64,000 bases of DNA from Rhizobiales bacterium 65-9. Lineage in GTDB: Bacteria; Pseudomonadota; Alphaproteobacteria; Rhizobiales; Beijerinckiaceae. Under the pieces are notes generated by a model. The model was not told the origin of the DNA and made no database searches. It saw only the letters and a list, made by a program, of their open reading frames with translations. Both the position numbers and the translations under genes were made by a program. Of the stretch, positions 47,923 through 54,270 are shown piece by piece. Each line of letters starts with the position of its first letter. Positions within the stretch are counted from its first letter, which is position 1. The stretch lies in the NCBI GenBank assembly GCA_001899525.1, contig MKVY01000029.1, positions 112,733 through 176,732 of the forward strand. The letters are read 5' to 3'.

Positions 47923-49035
47923 ATGTCGCACAACACTTTCGGCCATCTGTTCCGCGTCACGACCTTCGGCGAAAGCCACGGTCCCGCGATCGGCTGCGTC
48001 GTCGACGGCTGCCCGCCGCTGCTTCCGCTGACCGAAGCGGACATCCAGGCCGATCTCGACCGCCGCCGTCCCGGCCAGTCGCGTTTCACGACCCAGAGGC
48101 GGGAGCCGGACGCGGTGAAGATCCTGTCCGGCGTGTTCGTCGGCGACGACGGCGCGCAGGTCACGACCGGGACGCCGATCGGGCTGCTGATCGAGAATGT
48201 CGACCAGCGCAGCAAGGATTATTCCGACATCGCGCCGAAATACCGTCCCGGCCATGCCGATTTCACATACGACGTGAAATATGGAATCCGCGATTATCGC
48301 GGCGGCGGCCGTTCCTCGGCGCGCGAGACGGCGATGCGCGTCGCCGCCGGGGCGATCGCCCGCAAGGTGCTGCCGGGCGCGCGCGTGCGCGGCGCGCTGG
48401 TGCAGATGGGGCCGCACCGGATCGACCGCGCGCGGTGGGACTGGGACGAGGTCGGAAAGAATCCGTTCTTCTGTCCGGACGCGAAGGCGGCCGCCTTTTT
48501 CGAGGAGTATCTCGACGGAATCCGCAAGGCGGGCTCGTCGGTCGGCGCGGTGATCGAGATCGTCGCGGAAGGCGTTCCGCCCGGCCTCGGCGCGCCGATC
48601 TATGGCAAGCTCGACGCCGACATCGCCGCCGCGCTGATGTCGATCAACGCGGTCAAGGGCGTCGAGATCGGCGCCGGCATGGGCGCCGCGGAACTGACCG
48701 GCGAAGAGAACGCCGACGAGATGCGCCCGTCCAACGAGGGCCTGCCCGGCTTCTCCAGCAACAACGCCGGCGGCGTTCTCGGCGGAATCTCCACCGGCCA
48801 GCCGGTCGTGGCGCGCTTCGCGGTCAAGCCGACATCATCGATCCTCGCGCCGCGCCGGACCGTGACGCGCTCGGGCGAAGCGGCCGACATCGTGACGAAA
48901 GGCCGCCATGATCCGTGCGTCGGCATCCGCGCCGTCCCGGTCGGCGAGGCGATGGTGGCTTGCGTGCTGGCCGACCACGTTCTGCGCCATCGCGCGCAGG
49001 TGGGCGGATTCAGAAGCTGGCCCGCCGGCGGCTGA
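47923..49035 (+). CDS. aroC: chorismate synthase
   Basis: It has [25 protein letters not shown] and [14 protein letters not shown] motifs. Confidence 0.97.
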
Positions 49036-49092
49036 GACCCTTGAGGTTGCGCCTCCGTCGGCGCGCGCCTAAATCCCCCTGGCACGGAGAGC

Positions 49093-49347
49093 ATGCCTTT
49101 GGCCACGACGCCCGACCTGTCGAAAGTCCCGTTCGAGAAGGCGCTCGCCGAGCTTGAGGCGATCGTGCAGAAGCTTGAGCGCGGCGAGGTTCCGCTGGAG
49201 GAGTCGATCGCGATCTATGAGCGCGGCGAGCATCTCAAGCGGCATTGCGAAAGCCTGCTGAAGAGCGCGGAAGCCCGCATCGAGAAAATCACGCTGGGCG
49301 CGAACGGCAAGCCGACGGGGACCGAGCCGCTCGATCCCGACAGATAG
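49093..49347 (+). CDS. xseB: exodeoxyribonuclease VII small subunit
   Basis: [35 protein letters not shown] is typical of XseB. Confidence 0.93.
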
Positions 49348-49378
49348 GCGCGCCGCGACAACCGGAAGGAGCAGCCCG

Positions 49379-50296
49379 ATGTCGTTTCATCCCGCGGACG
49401 ACCCGCAGCCGGGCGATTCCTTCGCCTGCGACGCCATCGAGCAGGTGATCATTCCGCGCGCCCGCGATCTCGGCGACGGCTTCTCCGTGCGCCGCGCCTT
49501 GCCGGCCGCGAAGAAGCAGATGATCGGGCCCTTCATTTTCTTCGATCAGATGGGGCCGACGCAGTTTCGTTCGGGCCAGGGCCTCGACGTGCGCCCGCAT
49601 CCGCATATCGGCCTCTCCACCGTCACCTACCTGTTCGACGGCGAGATCGTCCATCGCGATTCGCTGGGCGTGATGCAGGCGATCCGGCCGGGCGACGTCA
49701 ATCTGATGACGGCGGGCCGCGGCGTCGTCCATTCCGAGCGCACCGACCACGACGCGCGCGCGCATGAGAATCCGCTCTACGGCATCCAGAGCTGGATGGC
49801 GCTGCCCCGCCGGTTCGAGGAGGCCGACCCCGGCTTCGTCCACGCCGCGCGCGCCGATCTTCCTTTCATCGATGGCGAAGGCAAGCGCGTGCGCCTCATC
49901 ATGGGCTCGCTCTATGACCGCACGGCGCCGACGCGCTTCCCGCATGACTGTTTCTACGCCGAGGCGGTGCTTGCGCCGGGCGCCGTGCTGCCGCTTGATC
50001 CGTCTTATGACGAGCGCGCGATCTATATCGCCGCCGGCGAGATCGACATCGCCGGCGACGTGTTCGGTCCCGGCCGGCTGCTGGTGTTCAGGCCGGGCGA
50101 CCGCATCTCCATCCTCGCGCAGTCGCAGGCGCGCCTGATGCTGCTGGGCGGCGAGCCGATGGACGGGCCGCGACACATCTGGTGGAATTTCGTCTCGTCG
50201 CGCAAGGAGCGAATCGATCAGGCGAAGGCGGAATGGCGCGCCGGAAAATTCGATTCCGTGCCGGGCGAAACGGAGTTCATTCCGCTCCCCGAGTGA
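49379..50296 (+). CDS. pirin-family protein
   Basis: The cupin motifs are PHPHIGLSTVTYLF.GEIVHRDSLG and GVVHSE. 305 aa. Confidence 0.92.
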   Translation: MSFHPADDPQPGDSFACDAIEQVIIPRARDLGDGFSVRRALPAAKKQMIGPFIFFDQMGPTQFRSGQGLDVRPHPHIGLSTVTYLFDGEIVHRDSLGVMQAIRPGDVNLMTAGRGVVHSERTDHDARAHENPLYGIQSWMALPRRFEEADPGFVHAARADLPFIDGEGKRVRLIMGSLYDRTAPTRFPHDCFYAEAVLAPGAVLPLDPSYDERAIYIAAGEIDIAGDVFGPGRLLVFRPGDRISILAQSQARLMLLGGEPMDGPRHIWWNFVSSRKERIDQAKAEWRAGKFDSVPGETEFIPLPE

Positions 50297-50300
50297 GGTC

Positions 50301-50375
50301 ATGACATGTCATCCGGCCGCGAGGCGATTGCATGACATGTCATGGTGCGCTATAGGCCCGGCGATGACATGTCAT
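50301..50375. promoter_or_regulatory. three copies of the perfect 12-bp palindrome ATGACATGTCAT (candidate operator array)
   Basis: The copies are at 50301-50312, 50332-50343 and 50364-50375, with starts 31 and 32 bp apart. The last copy abuts the GGAG Shine-Dalgarno of the antitoxin gene. Confidence 0.7.
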
Positions 50376-50387
50376 GGAGACTGAGCC

Positions 50388-50774
50388 ATGGCCGAACGCC
50401 GACGCCCACGCTCCCGCAATGCGTCGTCCCCAGTTAAGACGAAGACGCGTCCCCGAAAAGCCGACCCGCGTAAGGCGAAGAAGGCGGCCAAGCGACCGGC
50501 TGCGAAGAGCGCCGTCAAGAAGGCTATGAAAACCGCTGCGAAGACGCAGACGCGCGTGAAGTCCGCCGATCCTCACGCCGCCGTGCGCCGTTATCGCGAG
50601 CGCATGCGCGCGAAGGGGCTGCGCCCCATGACGATCTGGGCGCCCGATCTGACAAACCCGGCTGTGTCCGCGATGCTGGCGCGGGAATTCGCGGCGATTT
50701 GCGCGGCCGCCAAAGCGGATGCTTCTTTCTCGTCGCTTTTCGACGCGCAGGATTTTCCGGACTGGACCGCATGA
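50388..50774 (+). CDS. DUF3018/MazE-like antitoxin with a long basic N-terminal tail
   Basis: The C-terminal part AVRRYRERMRAKGLRPMTIWAPDLTNP matches the DUF3018 antitoxin pattern. The N-terminal roughly 55 aa are K/R/A/P-rich. Its stop overlaps the mazF ATG as ATGA. Confidence 0.75.
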   Translation: MAERRRPRSRNASSPVKTKTRPRKADPRKAKKAAKRPAAKSAVKKAMKTAAKTQTRVKSADPHAAVRRYRERMRAKGLRPMTIWAPDLTNPAVSAMLAREFAAICAAAKADASFSSLFDAQDFPDWTA

Positions 50775-51109
50775 ACGCCGTCCTTCGTCGCGGCGACATT
50801 GTTCTGGTGGCGCTTCCGGGAGATTTCGGCAAACCGCGGCCCGCTTTGGTGATACAAGCCGACGCATTTCTGGCGAATGCGCCCAGCGTGACCATGGCGT
50901 TGATCACGACGACGCAATCGGAAGCGCGGCTGTTTCGCGTCGAAGTGTCGCCCACCGCTGAAAACGGCCTGCGCGCGCCGTCATTTGTGATGTGCGACAA
51001 GGTTGTTTCGCACCTGCCGGACAGGGTGCGCGCCCGGATTGGGGCGCTCGATCCGGAGCAGGTCACACGCGTCGACGAGGGGCTCCGCATCTGGCTCGGC
51101 CTGATCTGA
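50771..51109 (+). CDS. mazF: PemK/MazF-family endoribonuclease toxin
   Basis: LRRGDIVLVALPGDFGKPRPALVIQ...ITTT... and DKVVS are typical of MazF/PemK. 112 aa. Confidence 0.9.
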   Translation: MNAVLRRGDIVLVALPGDFGKPRPALVIQADAFLANAPSVTMALITTTQSEARLFRVEVSPTAENGLRAPSFVMCDKVVSHLPDRVRARIGALDPEQVTRVDEGLRIWLGLI

Positions 51110-51873
51110 TGGCGGAGCGCCGGCGCATCGATCAACTGCTTGTCGCGCGCGGCTTCTTCGAGAGCCGGGCGCGGGCGCAGGCGGCGATCGCGGCGGGCCT
51201 GGTGCGCGTGAACGGCGCCGTCGCGCGCAAGCCGTCGGATAGTTTCGGCGACGATGCGCGTGTCGAGGCGGAACAGCCTTTTCCCTGGGTGTCGCGCGGC
51301 GGCGTCAAGCTGTCCCATGCGCTCGATGCGTTTCACGTCGAGGCCGCGGGGCGGCTCTGTCTCGATGTCGGCTCGTCGACCGGCGGCTTCACGGACGTGC
51401 TTCTGGCGCGCCATGCCGCGCGCGTGATCGCGGTCGATGTCGGCCGCGACCAGATGCATGCGAAACTGCGCGGCGATCCGCGGCTCTCGCTGCATGAGCA
51501 GACGGATATTCGCGATCTCGCGCTCGCGTCAAAGGATCGCGCGTCGCTTGCCGTCGTGGATGCGAGCTTCATTTCGCTGACGCTGATCATCCCGGCGCTT
51601 GCGTCATTGACCGCGAGCAAAGCCGAACTGGTCGCGCTGATCAAGCCGCAATTCGAGGCGGGGCGCGGGCTGGCGGGCAAGCGCGGCGTGGTCGATGACG
51701 ATGCGGTTCGCGCGCGCGCGGTAGACAACGTGAAGGCGTTCGCCGACAAGGCGGGCTGGCGCGTAACGGGCGTGATCGACAGCCCCATTGAGGGCGGCGA
51801 CGGCAACCGCGAATATCTCATGCATGCGCGCAAGGATGTCGGGAGCGACAGCGCCCGAAAGGAGCCGTCGTGA
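51109..51873 (+). CDS. tlyA: TlyA-family rRNA (cytidine-2'-O)-methyltransferase
   Basis: The S4 domain is RIDQLLVARGFFESRARAQAAI. It also has VSRGGVKL and the SAM motif LDVGSSTGGFTDVLL. Its ATG shares 1 nt with the mazF TGA (TGATG). Confidence 0.92.
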   Translation: MAERRRIDQLLVARGFFESRARAQAAIAAGLVRVNGAVARKPSDSFGDDARVEAEQPFPWVSRGGVKLSHALDAFHVEAAGRLCLDVGSSTGGFTDVLLARHAARVIAVDVGRDQMHAKLRGDPRLSLHEQTDIRDLALASKDRASLAVVDASFISLTLIIPALASLTASKAELVALIKPQFEAGRGLAGKRGVVDDDAVRARAVDNVKAFADKAGWRVTGVIDSPIEGGDGNREYLMHARKDVGSDSARKEPS

Positions 51874-53108
51874 GCGCGGCCGTCGAGTTCACGATTGACC
51901 GGCTCGGCCATCGCGGCGACGGAATCGCGCGCGGCGGAAGCGGCGACGTCTTTATTTCTTATACATTGCCGGACGAACTCGTCATCGCCGCGTTGGAGTC
52001 CGCCGATCGCGCGCGCCTGCAGGCGATTGTGCGCGCCAGCGCCGATCGCGTCGATCCGGTTTGCGATTATTTCACCCGCTGCGGCGGCTGCGCGTTGCAG
52101 CATCTCGACCTGTCCGCGTTGCTCGACTGGAAGCGGTCGCTGGTCGTCGAGGCGTTGCGCCAGCGCGGGATCGAGACGCGCGTGGAGCCCTGCATCGACG
52201 CCCATGGCGATGGCCGCCGCCGGGTGACGCTGCATGCGCGGCAGACGCCGGGCGGAATCGAGGCGGGGTTCATGATGGCGCGATCCCATCGGCTTATCGC
52301 GATCGAGCGCTGCCCGGTGCTCGCGCCATCGCTTGCGGCCGCGCCCGGCGTCGCGCGCGCGCTCGGTGAAGCGCTCGCCGCGCTGCGCAAGCCGCTCGAT
52401 ATTCAGGTCACGGCGACGATGGGCGGCCTCGATGTCGATCTGCGCGGCGCGGGCAAGGTGGATGACCGCGTGCGCCTGCGGCTGGTGGAATTGGGCCGCG
52501 CCCTCGATCTCGCGCGGCTTTCGCTGCATGGCGAAACGCTTGCGGCCTGGCGCTCGCCGGCGCTGCGCATGGGGCCGGCTGTTGTCGCGCCGCCGCCGGG
52601 CGGATTTCTTCAGGCGACGGCCGCGGGAGAGGAAACGCTGTCGGCTCTGGCGTTGCAGGGCGTCGCGGGAGCGAAGCGGGTGGTCGATCTCTTCAGCGGC
52701 TGCGGGCCGATCGCCCTGCGCGCCGCCGGCCGCGCGCGCGTCCATGCGGTCGAGCTGGAGAAGGCGTCGCTGGACGCGCTTGAGCGCGCGGCGCGGGCGA
52801 CCGCGGAGCTGAGGCCGGTCAGCACGGAGGCGCGGGATCTTTTTCGGCGCCCGCTCCTTGCGCATGAGCTTGAGTCGTTCGACGCGGCGATCTTCGATCC
52901 TCCGCGCGCCGGCGCCGAGGCGCAGGCGCGCGCGCTGGCGGCCTCGCGCAAGCTGAAAACGGTCGCCGGCGTCTCCTGCAATGCGGCGACCTTCGCGCGC
53001 GACGCGCGCATCCTGATCGACGGCGGTTTTTCTCTCGAGCAGGTGACGCCGGTCGATCAGTTCCGTTATTCCGCCCATGTCGAGCTGGTGGGGATTTTTC
53101 GTCGTTAG
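51870..53108 (+). CDS. class I SAM-dependent RNA methyltransferase (RlmD/TrmA m5U family)
   Basis: It has the Fe-S cysteine cluster C..F.RCGGCALQH...C and the SAM motif VVDLFSGCGP. It also has a C-terminal catalytic Cys context (VSCN). Its GTG overlaps the tlyA TGA as GTGA. Confidence 0.87.
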   Translation: MSAAVEFTIDRLGHRGDGIARGGSGDVFISYTLPDELVIAALESADRARLQAIVRASADRVDPVCDYFTRCGGCALQHLDLSALLDWKRSLVVEALRQRGIETRVEPCIDAHGDGRRRVTLHARQTPGGIEAGFMMARSHRLIAIERCPVLAPSLAAAPGVARALGEALAALRKPLDIQVTATMGGLDVDLRGAGKVDDRVRLRLVELGRALDLARLSLHGETLAAWRSPALRMGPAVVAPPPGGFLQATAAGEETLSALALQGVAGAKRVVDLFSGCGPIALRAAGRARVHAVELEKASLDALERAARATAELRPVSTEARDLFRRPLLAHELESFDAAIFDPPRAGAEAQARALAASRKLKTVAGVSCNAATFARDARILIDGGFSLEQVTPVDQFRYSAHVELVGIFRR

Positions 53109-53149
53109 GAGCTGTTGACGCGCGGCCTTCGCCACGCCACCTCCAGTCG

Positions 53150-53803
53150 ATGAGCCAGCCCCAGAAAACCGCCATCCAGGTGTCGGTCGTTCCCGTCACG
53201 CCGTTCCAGCAGAATGCGTCAATCGTGGTTTGCACGGCGACGAATCGCGCCGCGATCGTCGATCCCGGCGGCGATCTGCCGCGCATCAGGGAGGCGCTGG
53301 AGAAGATCGGAGCGACGCCCGAGAAGATTCTTCTCACGCACGGCCATATCGATCACGCCGGCGGCGCGACCGATCTGTCGGCGGCGCTTGGCGTTCCGAT
53401 CGAAGGCCCGCATGAGGCCGACAGGTCGCTGCTCGAAGGTCTGGCCGGTCAGGCGAGGATGTTCGGCGTCGACGGCGTCAAGCCGGTGACCACGGCGAAG
53501 TTCTTGTCCGAAGGCGGGACGGTGAGCGTCGGAGAGGTTGTCTTCGATATTCTCCATGTGCCCGGCCATTCCCCCGGCTCTCTCGTCTATGTGCATGCGC
53601 CGTCGCGTTTCGCCCTGGTGGGAGACACCTTGTTTCAGGGCTCGGTCGGGCGGACCGACCTGCCCGGCGGGGATCACAATCTGCTGATCTCGGGCGTCAA
53701 GGCGAAGCTGCTGACGCTCGGCGACGACGTGACGATCCTGCCCGGCCATGGGGCGCCGACGACCATTGGCGAGGAGCGGCTGAGCAATCCCTTCCTGCGA
53801 TGA
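53150..53803 (+). CDS. MBL-fold metallo-hydrolase (YcbL/GloB-like)
   Basis: It has THGHIDHAGG, HVPGHSPG and GDTLF motifs. 217 aa. Confidence 0.88.
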   Translation: MSQPQKTAIQVSVVPVTPFQQNASIVVCTATNRAAIVDPGGDLPRIREALEKIGATPEKILLTHGHIDHAGGATDLSAALGVPIEGPHEADRSLLEGLAGQARMFGVDGVKPVTTAKFLSEGGTVSVGEVVFDILHVPGHSPGSLVYVHAPSRFALVGDTLFQGSVGRTDLPGGDHNLLISGVKAKLLTLGDDVTILPGHGAPTTIGEERLSNPFLR

Positions 53804-53913
53804 TGGCGGCGCGACTCGCGGGGCCGGTACCGGCGCCCTTGATTTGCCGCATGGCGAAGCCGACAATGCCGACCGATAGTCAATGAGAGGGAACCGCAGA
53901 GGACGCCGGGACC

Positions 53914-54270
53914 ATGTACGACAACCTCAAGCAGTTCGCGCGCAATTCACGCAGCTTTCGCGCCTCCGACGTGCGGCTCATGTACGCCCGCATGCACAAC
54001 CACGCGATCAGCCCCAGGCTGTCGCCGGAGAAGCTGCTCGAGATCGTGAACCGGCTCGGCTTCAAGGATGTGCGGGCGTTCGGCGACAAGATCGGTCTGG
54101 AGCCGCACATCGCCGAGAGCTGGGCGCGCTTCGGCATCAGCCATGACGCCGCGATGCTGTTGCAGGCGCTGCTCGACTACCGCAACCGGCTGAATGACGC
54201 GATGCAAGATTTCGAGCGGAACACGCAGATCCCGCTCGACATCTTTTTTGATGAGCACCAACTGCCCTGA
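53914..54270 (+). CDS. hypothetical protein with possible HTH
   Basis: 118-aa ORF. The segment LLEIVNRLGFKDVRAFGDKIGLEPHIAESWARFG looks helix-turn-helix-like. I recognise no family. Confidence 0.55.
   Translation: MYDNLKQFARNSRSFRASDVRLMYARMHNHAISPRLSPEKLLEIVNRLGFKDVRAFGDKIGLEPHIAESWARFGISHDAAMLLQALLDYRNRLNDAMQDFERNTQIPLDIFFDEHQLP

Follow-up and report, generated by a model that had tools for sequence, protein, structure and literature searches.

A mazEF-like toxin-antitoxin cassette inserted between a pirin gene and a tlyA-rlmD-like gene pair in Rhizobiales bacterium 65-9

In type II toxin-antitoxin (TA) modules of the MazEF/PemIK (Kid-Kis) kind, the toxin gene belongs to family PF02452 and overlaps the antitoxin gene that precedes it. 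Another pairing, that of a DUF3018 protein with a MazF-like toxin, is represented by pair TA5 of the Pseudomonas syringae plasmid pPsv48B, which the passages of the source that deal with it present as a putative plasmid maintenance module (PMC6354349). Here we analyse such a pair in Rhizobiales bacterium 65-9 (assembly GCA_001899525.1), encoded within 64,000 nucleotides of contig MKVY01000029.1 (positions 112,733 to 176,732 of the forward strand; this whole stretch is referred to as the window, and all coordinates are those of the window). The two genes, a mazE-like antitoxin gene and mazF, head a chain of four overlapping genes on the + strand that continues with tlyA and an rlmD-like gene. 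Comparison with related genomes showed that the TA pair is an insertion between a pirin gene and tlyA.

The window pair shares with MazEF/PemIK modules the order and the overlap of its two genes, palindromes in its promoter region that are consistent with autoregulation, and a toxin that aligns over its full length to solved MazF, PemK and EndoA chains. It differs from them in its antitoxin, which is a MazE-like protein of family PF11455 (the former DUF3018) instead of an AbrB-type MazE, and which carries a 64-residue N-terminal extension rich in Lys, Arg and Ala. With TA5, as described in those same passages, it shares the pairing of families, but TA5 is plasmid-borne and a candidate stability determinant, whereas the window pair is chromosomal and lies in a housekeeping operon (PMC6354349). 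The two genes that follow can be compared with the tlyA-rlmD-like pair of related Alphaproteobacteria: their order and orientation are the same in 25 of 29 loci, and pirin precedes tlyA in both same-genus genomes. Only in the window, however, does a TA cassette stand between pirin and tlyA, and only there does TlyA begin with MAERRR and end in a tail of ~12 residues that runs over the start of the next gene.

The cassette as an insertion between pirin and tlyA

The 29 loci were obtained by a search for TlyA in 40 related genomes, the locus of the window itself not being counted. In 25 of them the immediate neighbour of tlyA is the rlmD-like gene, and the two are thus an old, ancestral pair. 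Two same-genus genomes, G002 and G001, provided enough flanking DNA for comparison of the region upstream, and both have the order xseB-pirin-tlyA-rlmD-like without mazEF (with gloB next in G002), which matches the gene order of the window once the cassette is removed. The pirin gene of the window (49379..50296, + strand; Pfam Pirin and Pirin_C) shares 90% and 83% identity with its counterparts upstream of tlyA at loci L002 and L003. At the DNA level, G002 is homologous to the window up to the pirin stop codon and again from CGC-ATC-GAT, which are codons 6-8 of tlyA; between these end points there are 827 bases in the window versus 35 unrelated bases in G002. Since mazEF is absent from both same-genus loci, the ~812 bp segment from 50297 to 51108 (+ strand), comprising the putative operators, the mazE-like gene and mazF, is an insertion, a conclusion that we place on the same footing as the gene identities and gene overlaps reported below. 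It bears out an earlier annotation of the window made from its letters without database searches (the sequence-only reading), in which a TA cassette had been placed precisely at the tlyA start. The GC content at third codon positions (GC3) also sets the segment apart, being 0.74-0.75 in the cassette versus 0.81-0.86 in the flanking genes.

The mazF stop codon is located where it is typically found in this family: in 88 of the 120 listed proteins, counting that of the window, the last L[GAS][LIVF] motif lies 1-2 residues before the C-terminus, as it does here. Beyond the putative operators, mazE and mazF there is therefore essentially nothing in the inserted DNA. A search for tRNA genes between 44000 and 58000 and one for Rfam families between 48000 and 55000 returned none. 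Relatives of the antitoxin resembling its homologue P0004 (see below) are patchily distributed: they were found in 26 of 150 other family genomes, and none turned up in the four other same-genus genomes. Together, we consider it probable that the mazEF cassette was acquired horizontally and was inserted exactly between the pirin stop and the tlyA-rlmD-like operon, and that the match between two N-termini discussed below is coincidental. A plasmid origin was considered and rejected: a tblastn search with the antitoxin against 72,556 plasmids gave no match at E 1e-5.

As a hypothesis for the origin of the present junction, an ancestor may have had a pirin TGA that overlapped the tlyA ATG; the cassette would then have entered right after this TGA, ending in a TGA of its own. 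G001 has its pirin stop and its tlyA start in an ATGA overlap (L003:1480-1495), and coupling of pirin and tlyA thus exists in the genus.

The junctions were also followed in public metagenomes. Nine runs, one of which may be the source, hold at least half of the sampled words of 50200-53200, and four runs were compared with the window in the form of assembled contigs. A 1353-bp contig of run X1, which may be the source sample, is identical to the window over 49959-51311 and connects pirin with the cassette and the start of tlyA. In run X12 there are low-depth pieces of the cassette with about 90-96% likeness, none of which runs across the mazF/tlyA junction. No contig joining across an empty site was present among the 15 joints listed of 72, uncovered parts being uninformative in this respect.

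Gene identities and overlaps

The antitoxin gene (50388..50774, + strand) encodes 128 residues, of which 1-64 form the basic extension and 65-126 the PF11455 core. The core matches positions 3-65 of the 65 profile positions with 47.7 bits (cutoff 22, E 1.5e-12), and mazF lies directly downstream, so that the protein shows both features taken here to define a MazE-like antitoxin. A sequence search with it found no relative of solved structure. The toxin gene mazF (50771..51109, + strand; 112 residues) matches the whole PF02452 PemK/MazF profile (positions 1-109 of 109) with 77 bits (cutoff 23.1, E 1.6e-21). Sixteen sequences of solved MazF/PemK/EndoA chains match it at E up to 0.001, and the alignments run from end to end. 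In the alignment with 7bxy_A, gkpRPalvIQ falls on ggvRPvlvIQ and liTtt on aiTaq; the Arg of the RP motif and the Thr/Ser are the residues that we take to be catalytic in MazF. Among the matches listed, the nearest relative of the toxin is only 57% identical. MazF is predicted to be a sequence-specific endoribonuclease that the upstream antitoxin neutralizes, binding of MazE to MazF being the textbook expectation.

The third gene, tlyA (51109..51873, + strand; 254 residues), encodes a TlyA-family rRNA 2'-O-methyltransferase with an S4 domain (residues 5-44) and an FtsJ domain (60-241). It scores 230.4 bits with the TlyA subfamily model TIGR00478 of NCBIfam (cutoff 185.8), and 198.5 bits, below the cutoff of 250, with the TlyA equivalog NF049952 (23S C1920). 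Known targets of TlyA enzymes are 16S C1409 and/or 23S C1920. The fourth gene (51870..53108, + strand; 412 residues) encodes an RlmD/RumA-like S-adenosylmethionine-dependent RNA 5-methyluridine methyltransferase. Both equivalog models of RlmD (RumA), the 5-methyluridine methyltransferase of 23S U1939, stay below their cutoffs (NF009639, 175.8 versus 458; TIGR00479, 156.9 versus 183.55), and for this reason the gene is best filed as RlmD/RumA-like and not as a proven rlmD. Its translation contains a C-x5-C-x2-C motif plus a later Cys, presumably the ligands of an Fe-S cluster. The family assignments made from sequence alone stood, that of the fourth gene as RlmD-like.

Re-reading of the coordinates confirmed that the four same-strand genes are chained by stop-start overlaps. 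The TGA of the mazE-like gene (50772-50774) overlaps the mazF ATG at 50771 (ATGA). The final A of the mazF TGA (51107-51109) is the first base of the tlyA ATG (51109-51111; TGATG), and the tlyA stop (51871-51873) overlaps the GTG of the rlmD-like gene at 51870 (GTGA). This GTG is preceded at 5 nt by AAGGAG, and tlyA has no evident Shine-Dalgarno sequence of its own. Translation of mazF would be coupled to that of mazE, and tlyA, lacking such a sequence, would be initiated by termination-reinitiation at TGATG. There is neither a spacer nor a terminator between mazF and tlyA; a terminator scan gave five weak sites versus 3.3 expected, none of them between these two genes. Consequently, tlyA and rlmD-like would now be transcribed from upstream, through the cassette, both by read-through from pirin and from the TA promoter. 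The GTGA overlap is due to the C-terminal tail of TlyA (window 51835-51873), which extends ~12 residues past the point at which alignments with its relatives end (query residue ~242).

The MAERRR start shared by antitoxin and TlyA

Provided that the antitoxin starts at 50388, both the antitoxin and TlyA begin with MAERRR, and the first 18 nucleotides of their genes are identical at 15 positions, the three differences all being at third codon positions, exactly as had been read before. The match depends on this choice of start because the public gene call begins at the internal ATG at 50526 and gives an 82-residue protein (P0001, 100% identical). Were 50526 the true start, the upstream MAERRR would be untranslated and the match moot. 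Besides being the called form, the short protein would be of common size, most PF11455 proteins having 65-90 residues, and a GC3 of 0.72 in the extension shows little frame specificity. However, the frame is open from 50388, and the ATG there has a GGAG (50376-50379) 8 nt upstream of it, adjoining the third of the palindromes described below. Moreover, homologues P0002-P0004 carry long extensions rich in Lys, Arg and Ala as well (47-51 residues in P0002 and P0003), and P0004 (132 residues) begins MAERRRPGFRNA versus MAERRRPRSRNA in the window, the two having MAERRRP..RNA in common. The GGAG and the motif shared with P0004 favour the upstream start, and we think that the 128-residue form is real and that 50388 is the right start; initiation at 50526 appears decidedly improbable. 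The extension (window 50388-50579) resembles histone H1, and by a crude filter a similarly long basic extension is found in 6 of 110 other family members.

The sequence-only reading had proposed that the antitoxin duplicated or captured the first codons of tlyA. As P0004 starts with MAERRRP independently, capture by the antitoxin is rejected, and MAERRRP is native to this antitoxin subclade. Nor is there a sign of duplication at the DNA level. Based on the codon usage of the genome (1265 long open reading frames [ORFs]), MAERRR encoded twice independently should be identical at 15.1 of 18 bases and at 2.4 of the five codons other than Met, and the observed values are 15 and 2. Hence, the nucleotide identity adds nothing to the fact that the peptide is shared.

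On the side of TlyA, none of the 119 best non-self homologues starts with MAERRR. This hexapeptide is likewise found at the start of only one of 110 other MazE-like proteins, so the possibility, considered before, that it is common at TlyA or DUF3018 N-termini does not hold literally. Related starts do occur: 12 of the 119 TlyA proteins begin with M.ER.R (mostly MSERQR) and 21 have RRR[AILV]D; in the R-[AI]-D core of TlyA, the conserved R corresponds to the final R of MAERRR. Seven homologues (P0007-P0009, P0011-P0013 and P0017) have KQR[AILV]D starts, six of them among the seven closest, P0010 being truncated. P0007, the closest TlyA homologue among the matches listed (71% identical), starts with MKQRID. 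The start of the window TlyA is thus derived within its clade, yet inside the range of the family. In the genome, four ORFs of at least 60 residues start with MAERRR. As a crude genome-wide null, we determined how often same-strand neighbours share a start-anchored hexapeptide, which was the case for 8 of 13,497 pairs. At least five of these are tandem paralogues, and two more match by chance, at doubtful ORFs or at candidate internal starts. The tandem paralogues include pairs in G000 at C34 (- strand, ORF offsets 147968 and 149173), C22 (+ strand, 153536 and 154522) and C27 (+ strand, 440259 and 441027), which from their N-terminal sequences were read by eye as amidohydrolase-like proteins, ABC ATPases and TerC-like membrane proteins.

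These results make it fairly likely that the shared MAERRR is a coincidence at the peptide level, both N-termini being rich in arginine and neither falling outside the range of its own family. Alternatively, a copy of the antitoxin start may have replaced tlyA codons 1-5, either on insertion or through a small rearrangement or gene conversion that came later, so that MAERR in TlyA would stem from the cassette. The fact that homology to G002 restarts only at tlyA codon 6 would be explained in this way, and so would the contrast with the closest TlyA proteins, which begin M..KQRID, and the absence of MAERRR from the 119 homologues; that MAERRRP is native to the antitoxin subclade, and MAERRR rare at starts in the genome, fits as well. 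Rewriting keeps its weight because the derived tlyA start and the insertion occur in the same lineage. However, no excess of identity is seen at the DNA level, neither in bases nor in synonymous codons: a recent copy should be nearly identical, and an old one would have required selection on a segment of TlyA that varies freely among relatives. The similarity is, in addition, confined to the 18 nt without extension up- or downstream, and under simple crossover or Campbell-type models the operators would be expected to end up on the wrong side. We therefore regard overwriting of the tlyA start as unlikely, although less so than a start of the antitoxin at 50526. Target-site duplication or Campbell integration at a MAERRR microhomology was considered separately and rejected; the operators would in that case be found between mazF and tlyA, and no exact 6-mer is common to the two 18-mers.

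Several observations weigh against horizontal acquisition combined with a coincidental match. MAERRR is rare in both families, and from the frequencies given above the a priori chance of the match is, as a rough estimate, about 0.1-1%. MAERR is derived in the very TlyA lineage that carries the insertion, as its closest relatives have M..KQRID. The overlap of the mazF stop with the tlyA start is tighter than a random insertion would give. Finally, P0004 (the antitoxin homologue with the MAERRRP start) and P0007 (the closest TlyA) each derive from a single Logan contig; its length is 13,026 bp in both cases, and the two genes are probably on the same contig. If they are adjacent on it, the association would recur in a second lineage.

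Putative operators, expression and a possible link between toxin and methyltransferases

Three perfect 12-bp copies of the palindrome ATGACATGTCAT (no strand assigned) start right after the pirin stop (50296). They are located at 50301..50312, at 50332..50343, where the copy overlaps a possible -35 box TTGCAT (50328-50333), and at 50364..50375, just before the GGAG and the ATG of the antitoxin gene. Their start-to-start spacing is 31 and 32 nt, i.e. ~3 helical turns. The 4.45-Mb assembly contains three copies of ATGACATGTCAT, all at this locus. This arrangement is suggestive of the three palindromes being the cassette's own operators, to which the antitoxin, alone or together with MazF, is predicted to bind, and such binding would result in autorepression of the cassette. 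A possible promoter was recognized by eye at 50328-50356 (TTGCAT, 17 nt, TATAGG), which fails a consensus scan; a consensus sigma-70 scan of 49000-54000 gave no sites. Operator function, co-transcription and translational coupling are what we infer from these features and from the overlaps. In five metagenome loci among the closer relatives, the mazE-like gene is preceded at 40-60 nt by a related palindrome, ATGACTAGTCAT, which may constitute a conserved operator of this antitoxin subfamily. The five copies (L112:579, L114:218, L115:104, L116:1482 and L167:303) have the same ATGAC-NN-GTCAT form as those of the window.

We also analyzed whether mazEF and tlyA occur together elsewhere. tlyA was not found in the flanks of any other mazE-like locus, neither in 80 genome loci nor in 56 metagenome loci (many of them on short contigs) nor in 19 loci of the same family (0 of 155 in total). 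mazF follows mazE in 73 of the 80, 52 of the 56 and all 19. Conversely, mazE or mazF stands beside tlyA in none of the 29 other tlyA loci. The adjacency is therefore sporadic, and among the loci examined it is present in this genome only. The sequence-only reading had suggested a functional coupling between MazF and the methyltransferases and had itself named sporadic adjacency among relatives as an outcome speaking against it; these counts lend the coupling no comparative support.

A functional chain could operate in two ways: rRNA methylation by TlyA or the RlmD-like enzyme would gate cleavage by MazF, or the cassette would be retained for stabilizing the methyltransferase operon. Some mycobacterial MazFs cut rRNA. 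The stop-start overlaps imply co-expression of the four genes, and cleavage by E. coli MazF is blocked by N6-methyladenosine in its ACA site, the basis of MAZTER-seq according to the part of the source that describes it (PMC13602947). The possible presence of P0004 and P0007 on one contig would favour such a link as well. On the other hand, the adjacency is unique to this genome in the comparisons above, the cassette has putative operators of its own, and tlyA-rlmD-like occurs without the cassette throughout the family. In addition, a full-text literature search, with articles judged by title and the start of the abstract, turned up nothing that links MazF with TlyA or with a co-transcribed rRNA methyltransferase. 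We accordingly hold it very unlikely that the chain is functional in either sense. The four-gene chain is in our judgement likely a by-product of the insertion into an existing operon junction, and not a dedicated toxin-methyltransferase system.

The 13,026-bp contig deserves mention in this context. Among the best 120 MazF matches none is a partner toxin from a contig of 13,026 bp, and the organism of P0007 is roughly as far from the window as it is from G002. Were the P0004 and P0007 genes adjacent, a MAERRR antitoxin would lie beside a tlyA without MAERRR, and the association would span two lineages. This could be extended to a scenario in which the antitoxin lineage has remained with the tlyA locus through species-level divergence, or keeps targeting it, and in which the tlyA start was rewritten to that of the antitoxin so that the two ORFs have an initiation module in common; co-regulation of MazF with the methyltransferases would then serve a function, for instance a protection of rRNA from the toxin that depends on methylation. 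We consider this scenario highly improbable.

With the chain as a by-product of the insertion, the locus is a clean and datable example of a minimal TA cassette (operators and two genes, flanked by no mobility gene, tRNA or repeat) in a translationally coupled operon junction that it left unbroken. It has placed two housekeeping rRNA methyltransferase genes behind a putatively autoregulated TA promoter, and thus provides a case of how TA modules rewire neighbouring genes. It also points to a little-studied antitoxin family, PF11455, here with a histone-like basic extension and a triple putative operator. Its significance would be much greater if MazF cleavage depended on methylation by TlyA or the RlmD-like enzyme, for which no support was found here. 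A single one of the 80 genome loci, in a Rhodomicrobium metagenome-assembled genome, has an RlmD-like fragment (L097:79-636) 2.4 kb upstream of its mazEF pair; this locus has no tlyA, and the proximity is most likely due to chance.

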